Shown here piece after piece: positions 2,969-30,261 of a stretch of 64,000 nt of DNA. The stretch is taken from assembly GCA_030649735.1 (NCBI GenBank), contig JAUSFL010000023.1, positions 44,617-108,616 of the forward strand, in the 5' to 3' direction. Position 1 is the stretch's first letter, and every line of letters starts with the position of its first letter. This DNA comes from Candidatus Iainarchaeum sp. Its GTDB lineage: Archaea; Iainarchaeota; Iainarchaeia; Iainarchaeales; UBA10191. The position numbers and the translations under genes are program-made. Below the pieces are notes generated by a model. The model made no database searches. It had not been told where the DNA came from and saw only the letters and a program-made list of their open reading frames with translations.

Positions 2969-4678
2969 ATGGGATTTGAGGATGTTGCTTACAGGTATGC
3001 CATAAAGAATGCCTTTTTGCATGCTGGAAAGGCAGACCTTGCGGCAGTTGTTGGAAAAGTCATTGCGTTAAAAAAAGACCTGGATTTTGTCTCTGCAATG
3101 CCGCGAATTAAGGAAATTGTCGCGCAAGTGAATGCAATGTCTTTTGAGCAAATCAAGGAAGAGTATGAAAAGTTTTCTGAAACAGGCTACGAGCTAAAGC
3201 CAAAAGACAAGGAAGAAGGCCTTCCACCTTTAGACTGGGCAGAGAAAGGCGAGGAATTGGTTGCAAGAATTGCGCCAAACCCTTCAAGTGTAATGCACTT
3301 GGGGCATGCGAGGCAAGTTATTCCAAACTATTACTATGTTGAAAAATATGGCGGAAAATTCATTTTGCGTTTTGACGACACTGACCCTAAAGTGAAAAGG
3401 CCAATGCCAATGCAAGAGGCAAAAAAATGCTATCTTGAAGATTTGGAATGGCTTGGAGTGAAGAAAATTTCAACAATATTCTTTGCATCAGATAGGATTG
3501 AAAGATATCACGAGATTATTGGAAAGCTTTTTGAAATGGGAAAAGCATATGTTTGTGACTGCGAGCCTGAAAAATGGCGTGAACTAACTAAAAACTCCAA
3601 GGCTTGTCCTTGCCGCGAGCTTTCAGTGGAAGACCAGATTGCAAAATGGAAGAAAATGCTTTCCCACGAGTTTAAGGAAGGCCAAGTTGTTGCAAGAGTT
3701 AAGACTGACTTGAATGACAAGGACCCGAGCATTAGGGACTGGTGGCTTGCAAAAATTGTTGACAATCCAGACCACCCAAATCCCGTAACCAAGGGAGTTC
3801 ATGTTTGGCCGTCTTATAATTTAGCTTCAGTGGTTGATGACCATGATTTTGGAGTCACTTTAATCATTCGCGGACAAGAGCACGCGCAAAACGCAACAAA
3901 GCAAAAATGGGTTGCTGATTATTTTGGCTGGGTTTACCCGCACACTATCACGACTGGTAGAATAAGGCTTGAAGGCTCTTTAATGAGCAAGAGCAAAATC
4001 AAGGCGGCAATTGAAGCCGGAGAGCTTTCCGGAGTTGATGATCCAAGGGTTGGAACAATCCAGACTTTGCGCAGGCGTGGGATTACTCCAGAGTCTTTGC
4101 AGAAAGTAATTTTGAATTTGGGAATTAATCCTAATGATTCAGTAATTAGTGTTGACGCTTTGTATGACGCGAATCGCAAAATCATTGATCCAATTTCTGA
4201 CAGAGTAAGCTTTGTTGAAGATCCAATTCAATTGGACGTGCAGTTTTCTCCAAGGTTTGAGGTTAAAGTTCCAATCCATCCTGACTTTCCAGAACGCGGG
4301 GAAAAAGTTTTTGCGCTTTCTGAAGGCAGCCAAATTTTCACTGTCTCTAAAAAAGAGCTTGAAAAGCTCAAGGTTGGAGAGACTTTCCGCTTGAGGAATG
4401 CGTACAATGCAAAGCTTGTTGACTTGAAAGACAAGGTGGCTTTTGCGCATTTCACTGGCTTTGAAAAGATCAACAAGATAGTTCTTGTCTGGCTTTTGCC
4501 TGAAGAATTGGTTGATGCTGAAGTGACAATGGATGATGCTGAAAAAGTTGAAGGCGTTGCTGAATCTTTCATTCTGGAAAAGAAAGCCGGCGACCGCGTG
4601 CTTTTGGAAAAGTTTGGCTATTGCATTGTTGACGAATGCTCGAAAAAGCTTGTGAAGCTTTGGTATTCGCACAAATAG
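2969..4678 (+). CDS. gltX: Glutamate--tRNA ligase (archaeal type)
   Basis: RIAPNPS, HLGH (HIGH), LRFDDTDP, CxC..CPCR zinc motif, IIRGQEH, MSKS, DDPRVGT. Confidence 0.96.
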   Translation: MGFEDVAYRYAIKNAFLHAGKADLAAVVGKVIALKKDLDFVSAMPRIKEIVAQVNAMSFEQIKEEYEKFSETGYELKPKDKEEGLPPLDWAEKGEELVARIAPNPSSVMHLGHARQVIPNYYYVEKYGGKFILRFDDTDPKVKRPMPMQEAKKCYLEDLEWLGVKKISTIFFASDRIERYHEIIGKLFEMGKAYVCDCEPEKWRELTKNSKACPCRELSVEDQIAKWKKMLSHEFKEGQVVARVKTDLNDKDPSIRDWWLAKIVDNPDHPNPVTKGVHVWPSYNLASVVDDHDFGVTLIIRGQEHAQNATKQKWVADYFGWVYPHTITTGRIRLEGSLMSKSKIKAAIEAGELSGVDDPRVGTIQTLRRRGITPESLQKVILNLGINPNDSVISVDALYDANRKIIDPISDRVSFVEDPIQLDVQFSPRFEVKVPIHPDFPERGEKVFALSEGSQIFTVSKKELEKLKVGETFRLRNAYNAKLVDLKDKVAFAHFTGFEKINKIVLVWLLPEELVDAEVTMDDAEKVEGVAESFILEKKAGDRVLLEKFGYCIVDECSKKLVKLWYSHK

Positions 4679-4770
4679 AGTTAGGCACTACATGTTTTGA
4701 ACTCTTGAAAGGAAAACGCTTTCTTTTTTAAAGATTCCCTCGCAAGAGTATTGTATTAATTTAGTTTTAA

Positions 4771-4809
4771 GCCAATGAAAAAAGCCCTATTTGCGGCTTT
4801 AAGAGGTGA
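4771..4809 (+). promoter_or_regulatory. Kink-turn in the rpl7ae 5' UTR overlapping the Shine-Dalgarno (candidate L7Ae autoregulatory element)
   Basis: GCC-AAU-GA-AA-AAAGCC[loop]GGCUUU-AA-GA-GGU: C-stem GCC/GGU, 3-nt bulge ending in U, tandem G-A/A-G, NC stem; SD GAGGTGA at 4803-4809. Confidence 0.7.
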
Positions 4810-4815
4810 TTTAAA

Positions 4816-5178
4816 ATGGCTAATTTTGGTTTTGAAGTCCCGAAAGAATTGCAGGAAAAGCAACTGCAGTTTTTGGAAAAAATCCACAAGGGCGGGAAAA
4901 TAAAAGTCGGAGTCAATGAAACAACCAAAATGGTTGAGCGCGGAACAGCAAAATTAGTCATTGTCGCAAAAGACGTTTCGCCTGCAGAATTGGTAATGCA
5001 CTTGCCTTTAATCTGCAAGGAAAAGAACATTCCGTGCACTTTTGTCGACACTAAGAAAGAGCTTGGCGAAAGAGCAGGCATTGGAGTGGGCACTTCAGCA
5101 ATTGCTGTTGTTGACGAAGGCGAAGCAAAAAAAGACCTTGAAGACATTGTCAAGAAAGTCAAGGAATTGGCAAAGTAG
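4816..5178 (+). CDS. rpl7ae: 50S ribosomal protein L7Ae
   Basis: GKIKVGVNETTKMVERG..KLVIVAKDVSP..HLPLIC.EKNIP..ELGERAGIGVG. Confidence 0.97.
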   Translation: MANFGFEVPKELQEKQLQFLEKIHKGGKIKVGVNETTKMVERGTAKLVIVAKDVSPAELVMHLPLICKEKNIPCTFVDTKKELGERAGIGVGTSAIAVVDEGEAKKDLEDIVKKVKELAK

Positions 5179-5188
5179 GTGAATGTTT

Positions 5189-5398
5189 ATGGCAGAGCAG
5201 GGAACTCCGGCAGAAATTGTTGAAATTGTAAAAAGAACTGGCGCTAATGGAGAAATCATCCAAGTCCTTTGCAGGATTCTTGAAGGCGAGGAAAAAGGCC
5301 GAATCAAAAGGCGAAACGTTAAGGGAAACTGCAAGGTCGGCGACGTTCTTATTTTGCTAAGCGCTGAAAGAGAAGCCAAGGAAATCAGGGCAAGGTAA
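5189..5398 (+). CDS. rps28e: 30S ribosomal protein S28e
   Basis: PAEIVEIVKRTG..GEIIQV.CRILEG..KGR.KRRNVKG...GDVLILL..EREA; conserved L7Ae-S28e-L24e-ndk order. Confidence 0.95.
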   Translation: MAEQGTPAEIVEIVKRTGANGEIIQVLCRILEGEEKGRIKRRNVKGNCKVGDVLILLSAEREAKEIRAR

Positions 5399-5412
5399 AA
5401 GGGTGTGCTTTA

Positions 5413-5622
5413 ATGAACTGTACTTTTTGCGGTAAAGAAATCCTTAAAGGGACTGGAAAAATTTTCGTGACCAAAGAAGGCAATGTCAGCTATTTTTGCG
5501 CCCAAAAGTGCGAAAAGAATTCCTTAAAGCTGGGAAGGAAAAAGGAAAAAGTCAAGTGGACTGCGGCCTACCAGAAGGAAAAGAAAGTAAGGCTTATTGC
5601 ACTGCACAAGAAAGAAAAGTGA
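5413..5622 (+). CDS. rpl24e: 50S ribosomal protein L24e
   Basis: CTFCG..I.KGTGKIFV..EG...YFC..KC...LGRK...VKWT. Confidence 0.95.
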   Translation: MNCTFCGKEILKGTGKIFVTKEGNVSYFCAQKCEKNSLKLGRKKEKVKWTAAYQKEKKVRLIALHKKEK

Positions 5623-5630
5623 AATTCTGA

Positions 5631-6122
5631 ATGATTGAAAAAACTCTCGTGCTTTTGAAGCCTGATGCTGTCCAAAGAAGCCTTGCTGGGGAAATCATTT
5701 CACGGTTTGAGAGAGCCGGCTTGAAAATCATTGGAATGAAGCTGGTTCACATTGACAAGGAATTTGCAAGAAAGCATTACACTGAAGATGTTGCGAAAAG
5801 GCGCGGCGAGCAAGTGAGGAACTGGCTTATAGAATATATTACTGAAGGCCCTGTTGTTGCATTGGTTTTGGAAGGCGTTGACGCAATAGACCATGTGAGG
5901 AAATTGACTGGGGTTACAGAGCCTAAAAGCGCTGCTCCTGGAACAATCCGCGGAGATTACGCGCACATGAGCTATGGGCATGCTGACGAAAAGAAAATTC
6001 CCATAAAAAATCTCGTTCATGCCTCGGGAAACAAGGAAGACGCTGAATTTGAAGTTCCATTATGGTTTTCTGAAAGCGAATTGTTTGATTACAAGACAGT
6101 GCATCAGCACTTGACGCAATAA
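5631..6122 (+). CDS. ndk: Nucleoside diphosphate kinase
   Basis: EKTLVLLKPDAVQR, APGTIRGDY, NLVHAS catalytic His. Confidence 0.96.
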   Translation: MIEKTLVLLKPDAVQRSLAGEIISRFERAGLKIIGMKLVHIDKEFARKHYTEDVAKRRGEQVRNWLIEYITEGPVVALVLEGVDAIDHVRKLTGVTEPKSAAPGTIRGDYAHMSYGHADEKKIPIKNLVHASGNKEDAEFEVPLWFSESELFDYKTVHQHLTQ

Positions 6123-8277: not shown

Positions 8278-9093
8278 ATGGGCCAGAAAGTTGTTGCAGT
8301 TATTGCAGCGCATAATGAGGAAGTTTCAATTCAGGACACTTTGGAAATCCTTAATTCTTTCAGGCAAAAAAGGCTGCTTGATGAAATTGTGGTTGTGAAT
8401 GACGGCAGCACTGATAGGACTGCTGAGATTGCAAGGCGTTTTGGCGCTGTTGTTGCAAGCCATTCAAGAAACCAGGGAAAGCGGGCTTGCTTTATTACTG
8501 GCGCTTTCAAAGCAAGGGAGCTTGGCGCTTCCACAATGTTTATGCTTGATGCGGACATCATGGAATTCCCGGAACAAACTTTCAGGAAAATGGTTTCTTC
8601 AGTGACTAGTGAGGGAAAGCTGATGGCAATTGCGCAGCAGTTTGAGGAATCGCCCAGCCCTAAGGAAGTCCTTGACGGCGTTTCGCATTACAAAGTCAAT
8701 AACTATCATTCTAATGCCCAAAGGGCTTTTAGCATTAGTGCATTGGAGCCATTGTTTAGGAACAACAAGAAGTGGGTTTCTTTGCTCACTTCAAAGGCTC
8801 ATAAGTTCTTGACTCGTACTGAAAAGGCTGCTGGCAGCAAGTGGGGCCTTGAGTTTGCGTTGGACTATTTGATTCCCGCAGGAAAAGCTGTCTTTCTTCA
8901 GGAATTTCCTGTTTGCACTAGGCCTGCTTTCAGGAAGAATTCCAACCATGGAATGGTGCAAGAGCAGGGCAGGGGAATTGTGAAAATGAAAATGGCTGAA
9001 AGGAAGAATGCCGCGAAAAAGCTTTGGAGATTAAGGGCGAGAAAAAAATTTGCCAAAAGCCCAAGGCATGTTGTTTTGAAAAGGCCGCTTTAG
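8278..9093 (+). CDS. Glycosyltransferase family 2 protein with long basic C-terminal tail
   Basis: AAHNEE, IVVVNDGSTDRT, NQGK, DAD motif, WGLE. Confidence 0.8.
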   Translation: MGQKVVAVIAAHNEEVSIQDTLEILNSFRQKRLLDEIVVVNDGSTDRTAEIARRFGAVVASHSRNQGKRACFITGAFKARELGASTMFMLDADIMEFPEQTFRKMVSSVTSEGKLMAIAQQFEESPSPKEVLDGVSHYKVNNYHSNAQRAFSISALEPLFRNNKKWVSLLTSKAHKFLTRTEKAAGSKWGLEFALDYLIPAGKAVFLQEFPVCTRPAFRKNSNHGMVQEQGRGIVKMKMAERKNAAKKLWRLRARKKFAKSPRHVVLKRPL

Positions 9094-10757
9094 ATTTTCA
9101 ATTCCTTGTCTTGCTCGAAAGAAATGCCTTTCTTTAACGCGATTTCTGCCTTTTGCAGTTCTGTTCCAAGGTACATTGCGTGGCTTCCTTGCATGCTGAT
9201 GTCGTTTGAGATTCTGGAGTACAGTTCTTTTGCAGTCTTTCCGCCCCACATTCTTAATGCCTGCGAGCTTTCAGGATGCATTAAAGTGCATGAAATTTCT
9301 TCGCCTTTTAATTCCACGAGAAAGTTTCCTTTCGCATCTCTAAAGTCCTTGCGTGGTTTTCTGTAAAGCTTTAGGGCTGTTTCAACCTGCTGGTAGTAGT
9401 TGTTGTAGATTTGCGCGCTGCTTGAAATTATTATCAATAATCCGCAAGGCACTTTGATTGCTTCCGCAATTTCTTTCTGGATTGCGGCCATTCCGTAGGC
9501 GTTTTCAGGCCAGCCTTGAACCATGTCATGGCTTCTGAAATAAACTGTTAAATTCAATTTTTCGTCCTGGACCATTGCCTGAATCATCACTAAGCAAGGA
9601 GAGCTCTTGTGCTTTCTTAAAAGCTCGTCTGCGGGATGCCATGTCACTGCAACAATCGCTTTTGAGTAAGGGTCGCGCTTTAAGGTTTCAATCATGTCTT
9701 TCACTTGATTTATTTCCGCTTTTTCCCCGTTGAATTTCACGTTTTCGAGAATGAATTCTCCCTTTCCGAACTCGAAGTTTTGGATTGCGTCATTTTCCAA
9801 AAGTTCTTTCAGTTCCTTGCTTGAAGGGCTGTAGTAAGCGCGGAGCTTGTTTCCGTAAGTGTATGCCTTTCCTGCTGGCAGTTCTGGCGAAAGAATTTCT
9901 GACTGGTATGCGCGGATTTTTTCAACAGTCAATGGAATCAGGAATGGATTCAATGACAAGTCCATGTTTTGCGCGTCTTCAATAACGCACGCCATGTTGT
10001 TTATTTCCTTCACCCAGCGGTCAGTATTCGCGTTCATCAGGTTTTTTCTTCCGTAAGTGTAAATTGCGTGAATCATTTCCAGCCAGGTTTCAGGAATTGT
10101 TTTCCCCTGAACCAGTAAAGGCCCGCCTTCGAAAGGCAGGCTTTCACCCATTTCTTCAAACGCAAAAACCACTGGATTTTCCAAGAATACCTTTTTCTTT
10201 TCCAATGTTTTCAAAAGCTCATTTGCTCTTTCAATTTTTTCATCCAATGATGCATTGGGCATTTCAGAGTTCAAATCTATCAATTGCACGTTTTCCGAGA
10301 CTTTTTGAATCATTCCTGTGGGGATGTTCTTGTCAAAGTAAACCGCGCTTTCAAATCCTGGAATTTTTCTTTCGCCAGTAATTCCTTGCTTGAAAAACGC
10401 GCGGATTGCGTTAGCGCTTGTCACTTGCTGCAGGCCTTGGTTGTTTGGGGAAGCGCAGGCATACTCGTTGCCGAGCATTATCATATAGCGTATTTGCGGG
10501 TTTGCAAGTAAATTCCTGACCATTCCCGCAAGCCCTGCTGGAGTGTAAAAGTTTGTCGCGATTGCAAGGTTTTCTTTGGAAAGCTTTGGCATTATTACAT
10601 CACGCATTGTCCAGAGGAAAGTGACTGAGACTTGCGCGTCATTAAGTTCTGCGTCTTTTCCGACAGCGAACGAGACCCTGTCTTTCACAACCACTGGCCA
10701 GCCTTTGCCTCCAGTGCTGTCTTTCTGGTTTTTTATTTCATCAATCAATCCAGCCAT
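9090..10757 (-). CDS. thyA: Thymidylate synthase fusion: MtrA-like N-domain + ThyA + DUF4346-like C-domain
   Basis: ThyA motifs YTYGNKL, SPCL, FRSHD...GWPEN, SAQIY; N-terminal VRNLLANPQIRY..LGNE; C-terminal DAKGNF...SHAMYLGTELQKAEIAL..G..FEQD. Confidence 0.8.
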   Translation of the reverse strand: MAGLIDEIKNQKDSTGGKGWPVVVKDRVSFAVGKDAELNDAQVSVTFLWTMRDVIMPKLSKENLAIATNFYTPAGLAGMVRNLLANPQIRYMIMLGNEYACASPNNQGLQQVTSANAIRAFFKQGITGERKIPGFESAVYFDKNIPTGMIQKVSENVQLIDLNSEMPNASLDEKIERANELLKTLEKKKVFLENPVVFAFEEMGESLPFEGGPLLVQGKTIPETWLEMIHAIYTYGRKNLMNANTDRWVKEINNMACVIEDAQNMDLSLNPFLIPLTVEKIRAYQSEILSPELPAGKAYTYGNKLRAYYSPSSKELKELLENDAIQNFEFGKGEFILENVKFNGEKAEINQVKDMIETLKRDPYSKAIVAVTWHPADELLRKHKSSPCLVMIQAMVQDEKLNLTVYFRSHDMVQGWPENAYGMAAIQKEIAEAIKVPCGLLIIISSSAQIYNNYYQQVETALKLYRKPRKDFRDAKGNFLVELKGEEISCTLMHPESSQALRMWGGKTAKELYSRISNDISMQGSHAMYLGTELQKAEIALKKGISFEQDKELKI

Positions 10758-11459: not shown

Positions 11460-11554
11460 TTCAGATTGAATGAATTTACTGTTTTAAAAGCCTTTAGTGA
11501 CATTACTTGTTTTACAAAGATGAATTCAAGCAAAATTTCAGAAAGTGTTTTTTT

Positions 11555-13309
11555 ATGCCTACCATCAGGAAGCCAATCATCACAGTCCTTGGGCATGTTG
11601 ACCATGGAAAGACCTCTTTTTTGGACGCCATTCGCGGAACCACTGTTGTTGAGAAGGAAGCCGGCAGGATTACGCAGCACATTGGCGCTACTGAAGTCCC
11701 AATAGAAGCAGTTACAAAGATTGCCGGCCCGCTTCTTGAAAAATACAAGTTTAATTTGACAATTCCCGGGCTTTTGTTCATTGACACTCCGGGCCATGAG
11801 GCTTTTTCAAACTTGCGCAGGAGAGGCGGAAGCATTGCGGACTTGGCTGTTTTGGTCATTGACATAATGCAGGCCTGCCAGCCCCAGACTTCTGAAAGCA
11901 TTGAAATCTTGAAGGCTTTCAAGGTTCCTTTTGTGATTGTTGCAAACAAGGTTGACTTGATTCAAGGCTGGGAAAAGCATCCTGGAATGAGCTTTACTGA
12001 AAGCATCAAGCTTCAGGAAGACTATGTTCAAACTGATTTGGATGAGAAAATTTACTGTCTGGTTGGGGAAATGTTCCACAAGGGCTTTGTGTGCGAGCGC
12101 TTTGACAGGATTTCTGATTTTACAAAGCAGGTTGCGATAATTCCTTTAAGCGCGAAAGACGCTGAAGGATTGCCTGAAGTTTTGCTTTTTCTTGCTGGCT
12201 TGAGCCAAAAGTTTTTGGAAAGCCAGTTGAGGATTGAAGTTTCAGGCCAGGGAAAGGGAACAGTGCTTGAAGTGAAGGAAGAGAAAGGGTTGGGAAAAAC
12301 AATTGATGTCATTTTGTATGATGGCTCTTTGAAAGTCGGCGATGAGATTATTGTCGGCGCAGTTAATGGGTTTGTGAAAACCAAGATTCGCGCCTTGCTC
12401 CAGCCAAAGCCCTTGGATGAAATTCGCTCTCCAGAGCAAAAGTTTGATTCAGTCAGGGAAGTAAGCGCTGCAGTTGGAATAAAGATTGCAGCCCCGAATT
12501 TGGAAGGCGTTCTTGCAGGCAGTCCTTTGATTGTTTACCAAAAGCCAGAGGATGAAGAGGAAGTGCTCAAGGAAGTTGTTGGATTGAACATTGAGTCAGA
12601 GGCTTTGGGGCCTGTTGTGAGGACTGATGCATTGGGCAGTTTGGAGGCCTTGACAATGCTTTTGGACAAGGCCGGAATCAAGCCGCGCTTTGCGTCAGTT
12701 GGCGAGGTTTCAAGAAGGGACATTATTGAGGCTGTCGGCGTTGCCAAAGAAGACAAGTTCAAGGGAGTTGTTTTTGCATTCAACACAAAATTGAATGACG
12801 GCGCTGTTGAAGAATTGAAAAAAAATCCAGTGAAAGTTTTTTCAGCAAATGTCATTTACAGGCTCATTGAAGATTATGAAAAGTGGGTTAGTGATGAAAA
12901 CGCGGCAGAGAAAAAGTCTGTTTTGGAAAAAATCGTGTTTCCTGCAAGAATCATTGTGGTCCGAAATTGCATTTTTCGCAACGCAAATCCCGCGATTGTT
13001 GGAGTGAAGGTTTTGGGCGGCAAATTAAGGCCTGGCGCCAAATTGTTCAATGGCGAGAAATTGCTTGGCGAAGTCATTGCAATACAGGACAAGGGAAGCA
13101 ATTTGCAGGAATTAAAGCAAGGCCAAGAGGCCGCGATTTCCATAACTGACGCGGTTTGCGGCCGCAATCTTTTCGAAGAGGACGAGCTTTTGACAGTGCT
13201 TTCAGTCAATGATTATGCGGAAATTTTGAAAATAAAGGACGCCTTTACGCAGGCTGAATTGGACTTGGCTGAAGAAATCAGGAACAAGTTAAGGAAGCAA
13301 AGCAAGTAG
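11555..13309 (+). CDS. infB: Translation initiation factor aIF5B (IF2)
   Basis: IRKPIITVLGHVDHGKT, TQHIGA, DTPGHEAFSNLRRRGG, NKVD; no intein. Confidence 0.97.
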   Translation: MPTIRKPIITVLGHVDHGKTSFLDAIRGTTVVEKEAGRITQHIGATEVPIEAVTKIAGPLLEKYKFNLTIPGLLFIDTPGHEAFSNLRRRGGSIADLAVLVIDIMQACQPQTSESIEILKAFKVPFVIVANKVDLIQGWEKHPGMSFTESIKLQEDYVQTDLDEKIYCLVGEMFHKGFVCERFDRISDFTKQVAIIPLSAKDAEGLPEVLLFLAGLSQKFLESQLRIEVSGQGKGTVLEVKEEKGLGKTIDVILYDGSLKVGDEIIVGAVNGFVKTKIRALLQPKPLDEIRSPEQKFDSVREVSAAVGIKIAAPNLEGVLAGSPLIVYQKPEDEEEVLKEVVGLNIESEALGPVVRTDALGSLEALTMLLDKAGIKPRFASVGEVSRRDIIEAVGVAKEDKFKGVVFAFNTKLNDGAVEELKKNPVKVFSANVIYRLIEDYEKWVSDENAAEKKSVLEKIVFPARIIVVRNCIFRNANPAIVGVKVLGGKLRPGAKLFNGEKLLGEVIAIQDKGSNLQELKQGQEAAISITDAVCGRNLFEEDELLTVLSVNDYAEILKIKDAFTQAELDLAEEIRNKLRKQSK

Positions 13310-13321
13310 TTTTTCCGCACA

Positions 13322-13331
13322 TTTTTTAAAT
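13322..13331 (+). promoter_or_regulatory. TATA-like box for the ilv leader/ilvBN transcript
   Basis: TTTTTTAAAT ending about 23 nt before the leader ATG (13354), the spacing expected for a leaderless transcript. Confidence 0.55.
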
Positions 13332-13353
13332 TCCTCGCAAGTTATTTATTGTC

Positions 13354-13431
13354 ATGTTTAGTGCAATGCCATCAAAAGTTCTGCTGCCAGTCGCTGTTTT
13401 GGTAGTCTTGGTTGTTGCACTGGTTGCTTAA
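13354..13431 (+). CDS. Putative ilvBN leader peptide (25 aa, MFSAMPSKVLLPVAVLVVLVVALVA)
   Basis: Translated by hand; 8 Val + 5 Leu codons in the last 17; ends 86 nt before ilvB; hairpin starts right after the stop. Confidence 0.7.
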   Translation: MFSAMPSKVLLPVAVLVVLVVALVA

Positions 13432-13464
13432 GCATTCCTGAAAAAAATCGAATTCTGGGAGTGC
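13432..13464 (+). promoter_or_regulatory. Stem-loop immediately after the ilv leader stop codon
   Basis: GCATTCCTG (13432-13440) pairs with TGGGAGTGC (13456-13464), 3 G-U pairs; no following U-tract. Confidence 0.5.
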
Positions 13465-13517
13465 GGGATTAAAAAGTTCAGAAGTCTTTAGAAAAAAAGG
13501 AAAGAAAGTGGAAAAAA

Positions 13518-15221
13518 ATGAATGGTGCTGAGGCAGTGTTGAAGGCATTGCAGGAAGAGAAAGTCAGGCATTCTTTCGGGGTTACTGGCGGTTCTGTAAT
13601 TCCATTGTTTGACGAGTACTTCAAGGACAATCATGAAATCAGGCACATTCCAGTAAGGCATGAGCAGGGCGCTGCGCACGCGGCTGACGGCTATGCAAGG
13701 GCTTCTGGAAAGCCAGGAGTTTGCATTGCGACTTCAGGCCCTGGAGCAACTAATTTGGTCACTGGAATAATGACTGCTTTCATGGATTCTAGTCCAATGG
13801 TTGCTTTGGGCGGGCAGGTTGCTACTTCGCTGATTGGGAATGACGCCTTTCAAGAGTCTGACATGATGGGAATAACTCTTCCAATAACAAAGCATAATTT
13901 TCAAATCCGCTCTCCGGAAAAAATCAATTCCACAATAAAGAACGCGTTCAAGATTGCGACCACTGGAAGGCCCGGGCCTGTTTACATTGACTTGCCTAAA
14001 GACACTTTAATGAAGGAAGTTTCTGCTGTGGAGAAAGTTCCATTGCATGGCTATAAGCCGAACTTGAAAGGCCATCCATTGCAGGTGAAAAAGGCTGCAG
14101 AGCTTTTGCTGAATGCCGAAAGGCCTGTCTTGCTTTTGGGCGGCGGAGTCATTCTTGCAAACGCCGCAAAGGAAGCTGCAGAATTGGCTTTGGAATTCAA
14201 CATTCCAGTAATAACCACTTTAATGGGAAAGTCGGCATTTCCTGAAACAAATGCTCTCTCGCTTGGAATGCTTGGCATGCATGGGAGAAAATGCGCGAAT
14301 TACGCTATTTCCAATGCTGATGTGGTTTTGGCTGTCGGCTGCAGGTTTAATGACAGGATTACTGGAAAGCTTTCAACATTCTTGAAGGACGCAAAATTAA
14401 TCCACATTGACGTTGATAATTCAGAGATTGGAAAAATCGTTCCTTCAGCAATTCCGATTGTTGGGGACGCAAAGCTTGTTTTGCAAGACTTGCTTTTGGC
14501 CGCAAAAAAGTTTTCTTTAGCGAAGAAAACAACTTGGTCTGAAAAATTAAAGGTTTTGGCGAAAGAATGCGACTGTGACTTGAATATTTCTTCAAATCCG
14601 GCAGACCCTAAAAGAGTGATTTTTGAAATTTCCAAAGTCCTCAAGGAAAATGACATTGTAACCACTGGGGTAGGCCAGCATCAAATGTTTGCAGCGCACT
14701 TCCTAAAGCGCGATAGGCCAAGGACTTTCATTTCCAGCGGCGGCGCCGGAACAATGGGATTTGGATTTCCTGCCGCGATTGGCGCAAGGCTTGCAAGGCC
14801 GGATTCTGAAGTTTTCAACATTGATGGCGATGGAAGCTTTGGAATGAATGTCCAGGAGCTTGCAACCTGCAGGTTTGAAAACATTAAGGTCATTCCGGTA
14901 ATTTTCAATAATTCTTACTTAGGAATGGTCAGGCAGTGGCTTGAACTGTTTTATGAAAAGCGGTATTCCACTGTTGACTTGGGGCAAAGCACTGACTTTT
15001 CTAAAATTTCTGAAGGCTTTGGAGTGAAGGGATTGAGGGTTGAAAGGCCTTCAGAGCTTGCTGAAGCGTTCCAGGCCGCGTTGAAGAATGATGAAACAAC
15101 TGTAATTGATGTTGCAATCGCGCCAGAAGCAAACATCACTCCAATGTTTTCTGCGGGCTCTTCAGTCTTTGAAATGTTCGGACCTTGCATTACTGAAAAT
15201 TATTTTAAGAGGGCATTGTAA
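13518..15221 (+). CDS. ilvB: Acetolactate synthase large subunit (biosynthetic type)
   Basis: RHEQGAAHAADGYAR, TSGPGATN, DAFQE, RPGPVYIDLPKD, GMLGMHG, TPP motif GDGSF...NN, LGMVRQW. Confidence 0.96.
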   Translation: MNGAEAVLKALQEEKVRHSFGVTGGSVIPLFDEYFKDNHEIRHIPVRHEQGAAHAADGYARASGKPGVCIATSGPGATNLVTGIMTAFMDSSPMVALGGQVATSLIGNDAFQESDMMGITLPITKHNFQIRSPEKINSTIKNAFKIATTGRPGPVYIDLPKDTLMKEVSAVEKVPLHGYKPNLKGHPLQVKKAAELLLNAERPVLLLGGGVILANAAKEAAELALEFNIPVITTLMGKSAFPETNALSLGMLGMHGRKCANYAISNADVVLAVGCRFNDRITGKLSTFLKDAKLIHIDVDNSEIGKIVPSAIPIVGDAKLVLQDLLLAAKKFSLAKKTTWSEKLKVLAKECDCDLNISSNPADPKRVIFEISKVLKENDIVTTGVGQHQMFAAHFLKRDRPRTFISSGGAGTMGFGFPAAIGARLARPDSEVFNIDGDGSFGMNVQELATCRFENIKVIPVIFNNSYLGMVRQWLELFYEKRYSTVDLGQSTDFSKISEGFGVKGLRVERPSELAEAFQAALKNDETTVIDVAIAPEANITPMFSAGSSVFEMFGPCITENYFKRAL

Positions 15222-15724
15222 TGAGTTTTGAGAAAAAATCCAATGGGTTGAGAAAGCACATTGTTGGAATGCTTGTGAATGACGAGCCCGGGGTTTTGGC
15301 AAAGATTTCCGGAATGTTCACTCGCCGCGGCTTTAACATTGACACTATCATTGTCGGAAAGACAAACATTCCTGATGTTTCCCACATTGTAATAAGCCTT
15401 TTGGGGAATGACAGGACTATAGAGCAGTTGGACAAGCAATTGTACAAAATGATTGACATTGTAAAGCTTGCTGACTTTAGCGAGTCAAATGCAGTGGTTC
15501 GAGAGCATTGCCTCTTGAAGGTTTCTTCCACTGAAAAAAGCGTTGAGCACTTGAATAATGTATGCAAACTTTTCGAGGCCCGCGTGCTTCACGTGAACAC
15601 TGAAAGCGTCATTGTGGAACTCGCAAGCTCTCCTTCAAAAATTGATTCATTGATTGAAACCCTTGCCCCTTTTGGAATCAAGGAATTAAGCAGGACCGGA
15701 GTCAACGCGCTGCAGAAAGACTGA
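15221..15724 (+). CDS. ilvN: Acetolactate synthase small regulatory subunit (ACT domain)
   Basis: VNDEPGVLAKISGMFTRRGFNIDTI, KQLYKMIDIV, FGIKELSRTG; TAATG overlap with ilvB. Confidence 0.93.
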   Translation: MSFEKKSNGLRKHIVGMLVNDEPGVLAKISGMFTRRGFNIDTIIVGKTNIPDVSHIVISLLGNDRTIEQLDKQLYKMIDIVKLADFSESNAVVREHCLLKVSSTEKSVEHLNNVCKLFEARVLHVNTESVIVELASSPSKIDSLIETLAPFGIKELSRTGVNALQKD

Positions 15725-15725
15725 C

Positions 15726-15746
15726 TTTTTTTTGGTTTTTGGTTTT
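15726..15746 (+). terminator. Oligo-T archaeal-type terminator after ilvN
   Basis: T8-GG-T5-GG-T4 directly after the stop. Confidence 0.5.
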
Positions 15747-15789
15747 AAAAACTGGCATATTTTAAATTCTTGGAATTCTTTATTGTTTA

Positions 15790-16509
15790 ATGCCTCAAAT
15801 CATCCGTCAAGGCGTTGCTGCCAAGTGGCGTTCTGAAAGACTGCAGCAAGCGCGGAAAAGCCTTCATGACAAATTAAGGGTTTTCAAAGGGGCCAGCGCG
15901 CATCAGAGGAGAATGTACGCTGACTTGAGGAAAACAATTGTTTTTGGAAAGAAATTCCTTTCAACTTTTCCTGAAATTGAAGTGCGCGGGAAGAAAAGGA
16001 AAAAATTTGCATTATTTCTTTCTAGGACTGATTGGGAGTCTCCGGTTTCAATTGCATTGAATGTCCAGGACGTGCCAAAGGGAAGCAACTTGCCTGGCGC
16101 TTGGCATCCCAGGCTAATGCAAAGCAAGCTTGCTGAAGCCGGCTTGGAATTTGACAAAAATAGTGTAATAATGACTCTTCAAGGAAGGCAATTAACTGAA
16201 AGAGAGCAGAAAGCCAAGCCATTGCTTGACTTGTTCAAAAACTGTTCTGGAAAATCTTGGGCTGACTTTCTTGTTGAAAGAGTTGAAGAGCACGCAAGGC
16301 AATTGGGCTTTAAGCAATGCAAAATCAGGGAGCCAAGCACGCTCGTATTTTACCAAACTCCAGTGGTTTCAAAGCCTGGCAGTTCCAGAAGGCCTGCAAC
16401 TGATGGGGAAAAATTGAAAATCAGGCAGCAAATGCACAAGCTGTATGACGGCACTGCATTAAGCCACCATTACAGGAAAGAAGGAGAATTTTGGGTCAAG
16501 GATTTGTAA
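15790..16509 (+). CDS. Orphan basic protein, possibly a divergent VirK/YbjX- or GNAT-like fold
   Basis: 239 aa with own TATA; TLQG...FLVERVEEHARQLGF...LYD...FWVKDL pattern. Confidence 0.6.
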   Translation: MPQIIRQGVAAKWRSERLQQARKSLHDKLRVFKGASAHQRRMYADLRKTIVFGKKFLSTFPEIEVRGKKRKKFALFLSRTDWESPVSIALNVQDVPKGSNLPGAWHPRLMQSKLAEAGLEFDKNSVIMTLQGRQLTEREQKAKPLLDLFKNCSGKSWADFLVERVEEHARQLGFKQCKIREPSTLVFYQTPVVSKPGSSRRPATDGEKLKIRQQMHKLYDGTALSHHYRKEGEFWVKDL

Positions 16510-29734: not shown

Positions 29735-29941
29735 ATGAGAAAGTTTTTTGTTTTAGGAATTGTTTTGCTAGTGTTTTCTTTGCTGTTTTTGAGCGGCTGC
29801 GCTGAGCAAAAAATAGGGCCTGGCGTTGACAATAATTCAGCGAGCAATCCAGGCAATGCGACCGGCGCTGCTTCAAGCATTCCAATGCCTCCGGCAAACC
29901 CTGAAGAAGGCAATGCTGAAGTTCCAATACTGCCGATTTGA
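29735..29941 (+). CDS. Small lipoprotein with Pro-rich tail
   Basis: MRKFF...LFLSGC lipobox; IPMPPANP. Confidence 0.6.
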   Translation: MRKFFVLGIVLLVFSLLFLSGCAEQKIGPGVDNNSASNPGNATGAASSIPMPPANPEEGNAEVPILPI

Positions 29942-29955
29942 AAGCTGATTGAAAA

Positions 29956-30261
29956 ATGGGAATTGATTTTTTAAAGCCAAATTTTGGGAAAAAAATTCTT
30001 TTTGTAATTTTTGCAGTTATTTCTTTTTTTATTTTAAGTGCGGCTAATCCAATAATTTTTCCTTGCCTTGCACGGCCGGTCATTCCCAATCCACCGGCAT
30101 TTTCTGAAAGCATTTGCGGGTTTCCTTTTAACATTGTTTTTGGAGCAAGCATTCAGTACACTCCAGTTTCAATGCTTTTGCTTGCAGTCTTTCTTTTGGT
30201 GATTCCTTACTTGCTTTCTTGCGGAGTTGTGGAGTTTTTTAGAAAAAGTTCAAAGAATTAG
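29956..30261 (+). CDS. Small membrane protein
   Basis: DFLKPNFGKK, two TM segments flanking a Cys-containing loop, PYLLSC. Confidence 0.6.
   Translation: MGIDFLKPNFGKKILFVIFAVISFFILSAANPIIFPCLARPVIPNPPAFSESICGFPFNIVFGASIQYTPVSMLLLAVFLLVIPYLLSCGVVEFFRKSSKN

Follow-up and report, generated by a model that had tools for sequence, protein, structure and literature searches.

Can an archaeon set the output of its acetolactate synthase genes by letting a ribosome read a run of Val and Leu codons? Leader-peptide attenuation is a textbook bacterial mechanism that relies on coupled transcription and translation. The question is raised here by a stretch of 64,000 nucleotides (nt) from Candidatus Iainarchaeum sp. 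(assembly GCA_030649735.1, contig JAUSFL010000023.1, positions 44,617 to 108,616 of the forward strand), which we refer to as the window. An original prediction, made from the letters alone, proposed that a short Val/Leu-rich open reading frame (ORF) ahead of ilvB and ilvN encodes the leader peptide of an attenuator that works by ribosome stalling. The comparative data presented below, all of them drawn from sequence, support that interpretation, and we put the probability that the element is an attenuator of any mechanism at roughly 0.8, with ribosome-mediated control as the best reading. The case is carried by the reading frame and its geometry, by conservation across related archaea, by covariation in an adjoining hairpin, and by a match between the residues of each leader and the operon that follows it.

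Leaders ahead of branched-chain amino acid operons

The leader ORF (13354-13431, + strand) comprises 25 codons and a stop, and its conceptual product is MFSAMPSKVLLPVAVLVVLVVALVA. The putative regulatory run covers codons 9-24 (13378-13425, + strand), with 8 Val, 5 Leu, 2 Ala and 1 Pro; counted over the last 17 residues there are 8 Val, 5 Leu, 3 Ala and 1 Pro, and both Ile and Phe are absent. A TATA-like box, TTTAAATT (13325-13332, + strand), ends 21 nt 5' of the leader ATG. Because the box sits at this distance, the transcript probably starts at or beside the ATG, giving a leaderless mRNA. The final Val codon lies 6 nt ahead of a hairpin, H1, and the leader stop, which ends at 13431, is separated by an 86-nt gap from the ilvB ATG at 13518. 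The frame, its composition, this gap and the position of the hairpin stem all proved to be as originally predicted.

An unbiased scan of both strands for intergenic ORFs with a tail rich in Leu, Val or Ile was made over 54 genome loci and 42 metagenome loci, and gave 29 matches in the former and 24 in the latter. The large majority of matches lie 40-300 nt 5' of the first gene of a branched-chain amino acid (BCAA) operon, on the same strand, and are directly followed by a hairpin. With loci merged and duplicates removed, we see 62 distinct homologous leaders before BCAA operons, in Iainarchaeota and in other DPANN-labelled archaea, usually 21-28 codons long. The Val/Leu-rich upstream ORFs that the original prediction expected in relatives are thus widespread. 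In a first sample, all 8 genomes with a close ilvB orthologue carry a leader, either before ilvB or before the preceding synthase gene, and within the order a leader precedes 29 of 30 isopropylmalate/citramalate synthase loci, the exception having ilvE directly upstream. In the window's own genome (G000; 1.28 Mb, 92.7% complete), a 12-residue stretch with 10 or more Leu, Val or Ile occurs in only 3 of 3399 intergenic short ORFs, the window leader included. The third Leu-rich short ORF of this genome (C46:109968) was rejected as a leader, as it is antisense to a ribosomal protein gene.

For the element as it occurs in the window's subfamily, a covariance model (R1) was built and run against 151 genomes of the order. 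This gave 15 strong matches, one per genome, and all 15 lie ahead of cimA or ilvB. Three weak matches, from genomes that lack ilvB, were rejected as leaders, being AT-rich coding or antisense sequence.

The pattern of conservation within the leaders is of a coding type. In the alignment, T is conserved at the second position of the Leu and Val codons with a 3-nt periodicity, and the neighbouring positions vary. The N-terminal halves are not conserved. A strong TATA 8-mer was found for 39 leaders, and in 28 of these an in-frame ATG follows it at a distance of 18-26 nt, most often 20-21 nt. Variants read from the contigs of related strains (four DNA runs) include, in one strain, a double change from CTG to TTA that keeps Leu, and a GTA to GCA change, replacing Val with Ala, in the leader of two strains. 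In one strain the promoter and N-terminal part (13316-13407) have been replaced outright, with the final codons and the hairpin retained.

Composition tracks the pathway encoded downstream, in agreement with the enrichment in the cognate amino acid that was expected at the outset. Leaders of operons with both leu-type and ilv genes (n = 38) have mixed tails, with means of 6.6 Leu and 2.9 Val in the last 12 residues. Where the operon has ilv genes only (n = 13), the means are 4.6 Leu and 4.5 Val, and this group includes the Val-only tails MKNTTYNVNSVSVVVVVV and MTRTTYHKTVAVVVVAVV before ilvBNCD (loci L067 and L048). Where there is no ilv gene, the operon being leuA alone, leuA-leuS, leuA-ilvE or synthase-leuC (n = 11), the means are 6.9 Leu and 0.36 Val, with tails such as NLLLLLLLLLRL, LSLTLLLLLAL and ALALLLLLA; Leu-only leaders stand ahead of leuA, leuA-leuS or synthase-leuC. 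At least two Val residues occur in the last 12 positions of 49 of 51 leaders of ilv-containing operons, compared to 1 of 11 leaders of operons without ilv, and the locus of that single exception is cut by a contig end. The association between Val and ilv is strong (Fisher 6.5e-9), with the proviso that the relatives are not independent. The contrast between leader types is also seen within single genomes, being as expected in all four that carry leaders of both kinds (G000, G093, G021 and G018).

The second leader of the window's genome (C46 ~29890-29990, equivalent to L117 ~1095-1190) is Leu-only and ends in SLLNLLHLLLLPLEGSRN; its start may be a GTG that lies 21 nt beyond a TATA-like box. 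It precedes a short-form leuA (2-isopropylmalate synthase; L117:1261-2442), which is followed by a bacterial-type leucine--tRNA ligase gene. Here an 11-bp hairpin, GGCAGCAGAAA/UUUCUGCUGCC, has shifted into the ORF, where it overlaps the last four codons and thereby stays 3 nt from the last Leu codon. In two further genomes (L189 in G021 and L192 in G018), ilvB and ilvN are followed by a co-directional leuS homologue, behind a leader with Leu and Val.

Other short ORFs and promoters were observed ahead of ilvB. Loci L007 and L008 have a common TATA box, TTTAAATAGATT, about 230-170 nt before ilvB and ahead of divergent leaders, with a conserved AGGTGTTTTrYATCGTACAsGG just 3' of it. Five Thermoplasmata-labelled loci (L054, L068, L061, L063 and L058) have a recurrent 24-residue short ORF 38-46 nt ahead of ilvB (for instance MKSVSAPVLSDIGHSAIRSFSVLI and MKTACAPVLNGIGQRAVRSICQLT), in which no clear run of codons stands out; it may represent a leader of a different type, or else an extension at the N-terminus.

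The hairpin at the stop codon and the sequence beyond it

Hairpin H1 (13432-13464, + strand) has the 5' arm GCAUUCCUG, an A-rich loop and the 3' arm CUGGGAGUGC; in the minimum-energy fold, 13432-13440 pairs with 13456-13464. Its energy is about -10 to -12.5 kcal/mol, and its first paired base comes directly after the leader stop. This placement is general. Across the 62 leaders, the median distance from the stop to the start of the hairpin is 0 nt, and 60 of them fall between -3 and +5 nt. The last Leu, Val or Ile codon lies a median of 6 nt from the first paired base (at most 9 nt in 59 of 62), and the hairpins have a median energy of -11.4 kcal/mol. Hairpins that abut the stop and reach -8 kcal/mol or better are present in 51 of the 62 leaders, compared to 12% of 397 ordinary gene ends in the window's genome (Mann-Whitney 3e-27).

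The arm sequences are wholly different between lineages. Within the subfamily, 85% of the aligned cells pair and both sides have changed in 4 of 7 pairs, values that were reached by 2-3 of 500 shuffles; this is the covariation that the original prediction had proposed to look for. The arms carry no strain variants. Taken over its full 191 nt, the region shows no unusual stability (z = -0.35). Hairpin positions were taken from folds of the individual sequences together with the subfamily alignment; folds in which the hairpin was allowed to start inside the ORF gave unstable boundaries. RNAalifold predicted no pairs on a MAFFT alignment of 14 leaders, because indels had misaligned the hairpin arms.

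Beyond H1, the window departs from the form of a hairpin-plus-U-run terminator. Its longest U-run after the hairpin is UU or UUU, which bears out the original observation that there is no U-tract here and that the output should be non-canonical. Among leaders outside the window's subfamily, the U-run within 20 nt after the hairpin reaches a length of 4 or more in 29 of 51, of 5 or more in 18 and of 6 or more in 9, with several of U7-U9, and a U-run of at least 4 occurs inside the hairpin in 35 of the 51. The subfamily has a conserved motif, CAGAAGUCnUUAG, located 46-50 nt after the stop (14 leaders), with a UUA that all 12 aligned sequences share; in the window it reads CAGAAGUCUUUAG (13479-13491, + strand). 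A U-run of at least 4 follows H1 in 1 of 11 leaders with the motif versus 29 of 51 others, so that motif and U-run are almost mutually exclusive. The motif shows no strain variants, and the spacer at 13497-13518 is full of substitutions and indels. This A-rich, strain-variable region ahead of ilvB (13492-13517, + strand) includes a Shine-Dalgarno (SD)-like GUGG (13508-13511), which lies about 45 nt beyond H1. The hairpin therefore does not contain the ilvB SD, and SD sequestration by H1 is not seen at this locus.

The motif could form the 3' strand of a candidate second helix, H2, or of stem 2 of a pseudoknot. The 5' strand would be a segment from the loop and 3' arm of H1, GAAUUCUG (13450-13457, + strand), which is complementary to 13479-13486 at 7 of 8 positions; the window thus has one mismatch, and H2 is weaker still in the same-genus locus L075. 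Across the subfamily, the 3' part of the loop and the first bases of the 3' arm, CGRCUUCUGG, are the reverse complement of CCAGAAGUCG, and 80% of H2 cells pair, compared to 31-52% for slid controls. The duplex z-score reaches -4.4 in L126 and -3.4 in L141. In one strain, the change G13450T would break one H2 pair. As H1 and H2 overlap by only 1-4 nt, they could be either alternatives or the two stems of an H-type pseudoknot with A-rich loops. Three other explanations of this region were rejected on inspection of the aligned sequences by eye, as none of them holds across the subfamily: that a further promoter lies after H1, that the motif contains a palindromic site for a protein, and that another mini-ORF ends at the conserved UAG.

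A leader of another kind is found elsewhere in the same genome. The ORF MQGSCSLRDFSVFGFRPCNANNNGNNNNNGNC (C27:12146-12244, equivalent to L199:647-745) has 10 Asn in its last 14 residues and a TATA box about 21 nt before it, so that it too looks leaderless. A hairpin starts at its stop, and the 3' arm of this hairpin is a GGAGGG SD placed 4 nt before the start of an aspartate--tRNA(Asn) ligase gene, aspS (L199:799-2103), assigned by NF003483 (488 bits against a cut-off of 353). As this enzyme makes the precursor of Asn-tRNA(Asn), the match between codons and gene is cognate. The SD-sequestering arrangement of the ermC type is present here, and the Asn leader is a candidate translational attenuator in which sequestration would be relieved by a ribosome at the leader end.

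A proposed ribosome-mediated switch and its rivals

In the scheme that we propose, a cis-acting attenuator would read the supply of charged tRNA-Val and tRNA-Leu and control ilvBN. The transcript would start at or beside the leader ATG, and a ribosome would load on the 5' end. If Val or Leu were scarce, this ribosome would be slow in the run and would dwell on the final codons, covering the 5' arm of H1. The hairpin, perhaps pseudoknotted with the CAGAAGUC motif, would then be blocked and ilvBN would be on. If both amino acids were plentiful, the ribosome would terminate and depart, H1 would form, and downstream expression would be off. In many relatives H1 with its U4-U9 looks like a terminator. 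In the window the off-step would be non-canonical, because the conserved motif replaces the U-run, and could be structure- or factor-dependent termination or RNA processing. We infer translation of the leader from its leaderless geometry and coding-type conservation, and likewise infer that the ribosome stalls, which way the switch works and what the off-step consists of.

Given an attenuator, we consider the chances about even that it works by such steric occlusion, for which the tight geometry of run, stop and hairpin, the terminator-like H1 of most families and the Asn leader all speak. Still on that premise, classical wiring through alternative helices is a tentative option, and other outputs are likewise possible but doubtful.

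Several findings weigh against the occlusion scheme or the wider attenuator reading. No leader was detected at some DPANN-labelled ilvB loci (L045, L071, L086/L087 and L097), and Ile codons are rare in the leaders, though several operons start with a citramalate/isopropylmalate synthase gene. The H1 of the window lacks a U-run, although the same genome ends ilvN with T8. The H2 complementarity comes without covariation in the subfamily, and H2-type pairing is not general across families (mean z -0.18, 61 leaders). Nor do we see a conserved antiterminator: at equilibrium, the terminator probability in the 62 leaders does not differ from that of codon-permuted controls (Wilcoxon p 0.57, 0.17 and 0.48), and a classical antiterminator formed by the late codons and the 5' arm finds no support, as its pair probabilities are likewise no different from those of such controls. 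The segments GCACT (13417-13421), AGTGC (13460-13464) and GCCAGTCGC (13386-13394) do lie where the original prediction had placed them; the alternative pairings it built on them show no conservation. The 5' arm of H1 would be covered just as well by a ribosome paused at the stop codon as by one stalled in the run, and occlusion therefore needs quick release in times of plenty and probably also a pause of RNA polymerase, for which the U-run inside many of the hairpins could serve. Finally, no Asn leader was found before aspS in 29 other genomes, so the Asn case comes from one sequence.

The most serious competitor keeps the attenuator but wires it classically. H1 would then be the antiterminator, formed in the ON state when a ribosome stalls early in the run, whereas a ribosome at the stop would mask the 5' arm of H1 and free the loop segment to pair with the motif; H2 followed by UUUAG would be the OFF state. 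The complementarity of loop and motif in the subfamily, the two strong duplex scores, the position of the motif relative to the stop and its near-exclusion with the U-run all fit such a scheme, and the kinetics come naturally, since H1 would be left free by a ribosome that starvation slows down. Against this, H2 does not covary, has a mismatch in the window and is weaker in L075, and its small overlap with H1 means that both helices can coexist as a pseudoknot. The regulatory codons also reach the stop, where a stall would mask H1 and turn the operon off. Classical wiring would moreover give H1 opposite roles in homologous elements, since H1 with a U-run is terminator-like in most other families. 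We regard it as unlikely, though worth keeping in view beside the occlusion scheme.

The remaining rivals dispense with attenuation. The ORF could encode a functional small hydrophobic membrane peptide, with the hairpin as its terminator and a separate promoter for the ilv genes. A polar N-terminus followed by what looks like a hydrophobic helix would suit this, H1 and the U-run of relatives could terminate a short separate transcript, and an A/T-rich stretch does follow H1. That stretch, however, is a poor match to the TATA consensus and has a central G in several relatives, and the hydrophobic run is merely some 9-16 residues long and built almost only of Leu, Val and Ala. The N-terminal halves lack conservation, to the point of outright replacement in one strain, and the R1 search of 151 genomes never found the element away from BCAA genes. 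Above all, the switch between Leu-only, Val-only and mixed runs according to the downstream pathway is not something that membrane function predicts, and we think this explanation very improbable. We would say much the same of the idea that the RNA structure alone is functional, as a hairpin or pseudoknot that binds a protein or ligand or as a processing site, with the ORF a by-product. Covariation in H1 is consistent with it, as is the conservation in sequence of the CAGAAGUCnUUAG motif, often seen at sites bound by proteins or nucleases, and no Rfam family matches. Yet 62 divergent sequences keep an open frame, a start at promoter distance and a stop at the hairpin, and an RNA element needs neither the codon-position pattern of conservation nor the cognate composition. 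That the ORF is a chance occurrence in an ordinary intergenic region might be argued from its shortness and from the unremarkable folding energy of the region, but is contradicted by the conservation and the other comparative results, and we give it practically no weight.

Known systems and genomic setting

The obvious point of comparison is ivbL-ilvBN of E. coli, an attenuator that works via alternative hairpins. Both loci have a short Val/Leu-rich ORF before ilvBN, and the logic would be the same in that a translating ribosome reads the supply of charged tRNA. The IvbL sequence given in the original prediction, MTTSMLNAKLLPTAPSAAVVVVRVVVVVGNAP, is exact, and the prediction saw in it the same M..M...LLP.A layout as in the window leader. 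This likeness did not hold up: BLASTP gives no alignment between IvbL and the window leader, so the layout is not conserved, and the same-genus leader MFEKSTIRFYVALLVAVVAVLAA lacks it. The E. coli element also has a G+C-rich terminator with a T-run about 32 nt after the stop, whereas the window hairpin touches the stop and lacks a U-run; and in the window the mRNA is probably leaderless, the promoter has a TATA box, the host is an archaeon, and no conserved antiterminator was detected.

Other systems share the idea of a ribosome acting directly on a neighbouring hairpin. In ermC-type control, the hairpin that sequesters the SD lies next to the end of a short leader, and a ribosome stalled there opens it. 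The proposed occlusion resembles this in that a stalled ribosome at the leader end would melt the hairpin next to it, and the Asn leader before aspS fits the type; unlike ermC, H1 does not hold the ilvB SD, and the signal would be hungry codons instead of an antibiotic. In E. coli pyrBI, a ribosome close behind RNA polymerase blocks the terminator hairpin in response to UTP-dependent pausing. There too the ribosome physically prevents a terminator hairpin, but the pyrBI leader ORF runs through the terminator, whereas the window ORF ends at the hairpin and its signal would be Val and Leu codons. Mycobacterial attenuators with poly-Cys short ORFs (bioRxiv 10.1101/834739) are alike in encoding a run and, reportedly, in being leaderless.

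The closest known layout is bacterial, that of the actinobacterial ilvB leaders (Corynebacterium, Mycobacterium and Streptomyces; ilvB-II motif). A section of Seliverstov et al. 2005 (PMC1262725) describes short ORFs in which runs of Ile, Val and Leu codons overlap candidate terminator hairpins followed by poly-U, and likewise reports attenuators before leuS. Regulation of ilvB by a BCAA-rich upstream ORF appears in a part of Narunsky et al. 2023 (PMC10272879), and the C. glutamicum element is modelled, in a passage of PMC11857589, with terminator, antiterminator and anti-antiterminator hairpins. Compared by these descriptions, the actinobacterial leaders share with the window the compact placement of the run next to the hairpin; they differ in being bacterial, with sigma-factor promoters, and in the three-hairpin model given for C. 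glutamicum.

No archaeal leader-peptide attenuator was found in searches of the full-text literature, a scope that excludes subscription journals and supplementary files. A passage in Blombach et al. 2021 (PMC8448881) states that neither attenuation nor antitermination is known from archaea, and sections of two archaeal Ribo-seq papers (PMC11456600 and PMC10117724) mention upstream ORFs in general terms only. The present data support the view that leader-peptide attenuation extends to a new domain, in a new and compact architecture.

Taking the families together, we lean towards a wider proposal, which we hold to be rather probable: that, across Iainarchaeota and other lineages labelled DPANN, leaderless leader peptides whose stop abuts a hairpin would control the genes that supply Leu, Val and possibly Asn-tRNA. 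They would act by direct occlusion of the hairpin, with outputs specific to each lineage, namely termination at oligo-U, a pseudoknot-like element, or SD sequestration. Both the principle itself and the BCAA genes may be of bacterial origin, rewired to leaderless expression from a TATA box. The nearest IlvB loci outside DPANN in a word-limited search are from Myxococcota/Polyangia, at 48-49% identity versus 42-45% for Thermoplasmata. These Myxococcota/Polyangia loci carry leaders of their own, and the leucine--tRNA ligase of the window's genome is of bacterial type; import of the BCAA genes from bacteria is compatible with these findings.

If these leaders do work as proposed, the leading ribosome in an archaeon can decide the fate of the transcript it is reading, and a natural switch makes the coupling of archaeal transcription and translation testable. 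Genome-reduced DPANN archaea, with few regulators, would have a means to tune amino acid synthesis that needs no protein. The compact design of a leaderless ORF, a run up to the stop and a hairpin abutting it would be transferable to tractable archaea as a reporter or tool, and would offer a simple search recipe for similar leaders before other archaeal operons.

Pfam and NCBIfam confirm the two genes directly downstream of the leader. The ilvB gene (13518-15221, + strand) encodes a biosynthetic acetolactate synthase large subunit, with the N, M and C domains of Pfam TPP_enzyme and a score of 765 bits against the TIGR00118 cut-off of 538 (NCBIfam). The small subunit gene ilvN (15221-15724, + strand) has the Pfam domains ALS_ss_C and ACT_AHAS_ss, and is followed by an oligo-T terminator of the operon (T8, T5 and T4; 15726-15746, + strand) of the look typical in this genome. 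Searches for IlvC and IlvD in the genome by tblastn with the proteins of a relative found neither; ilvBN, ilvE, leuA, a cimA-like gene and leuBCD are present. Either the Val/Ile pathway is incomplete, or the two genes are in the missing ~7% of the assembly. An Rfam scan of the whole window at gathering thresholds gave no match, Rfam 15 on 13300-13560 with E up to 10 gave nothing relevant, whether among its Leu, Thr, His, Trp and Phe leaders or its ilvB-associated motifs, so far as it has them, and a tRNA scan of the window gave nothing.

Upstream of the leader lies the gene for aIF5B (11507-13309), and 3' of ilvN come a 239-aa ORF without a family, ribosomal protein S6e, aIF2-gamma, a PIN protein and Rpb7/RpoE. 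The aIF5B, S6e, aIF2-gamma and Rpb7/RpoE neighbours mark the host as archaeal, as had been concluded before from the letters alone. In the same-genus locus L075, the leader-ilvB-ilvN unit (3800-5701) follows genes that resemble 2-oxoacid:ferredoxin oxidoreductase, as read from N-termini, unlike that of the window (13322-15750), which sits between aIF5B and the S6e/aIF2-gamma cluster. Given these differing neighbours, leader, ilvB and ilvN behave as a movable cassette. The 239-aa ORF (15790-16509, + strand) matches no Pfam or NCBIfam family and has no homologue in the fetched loci or the rest of the genome; a TATA box of its own lies about 23 nt before its ATG. Further upstream in the window, at 9090-10757 on the - strand, the gene for a 555-aa protein with MtrA-like, thymidylate-synthase-like and pterin-binding DUF4346 domains adjoins one for thymidylate kinase.

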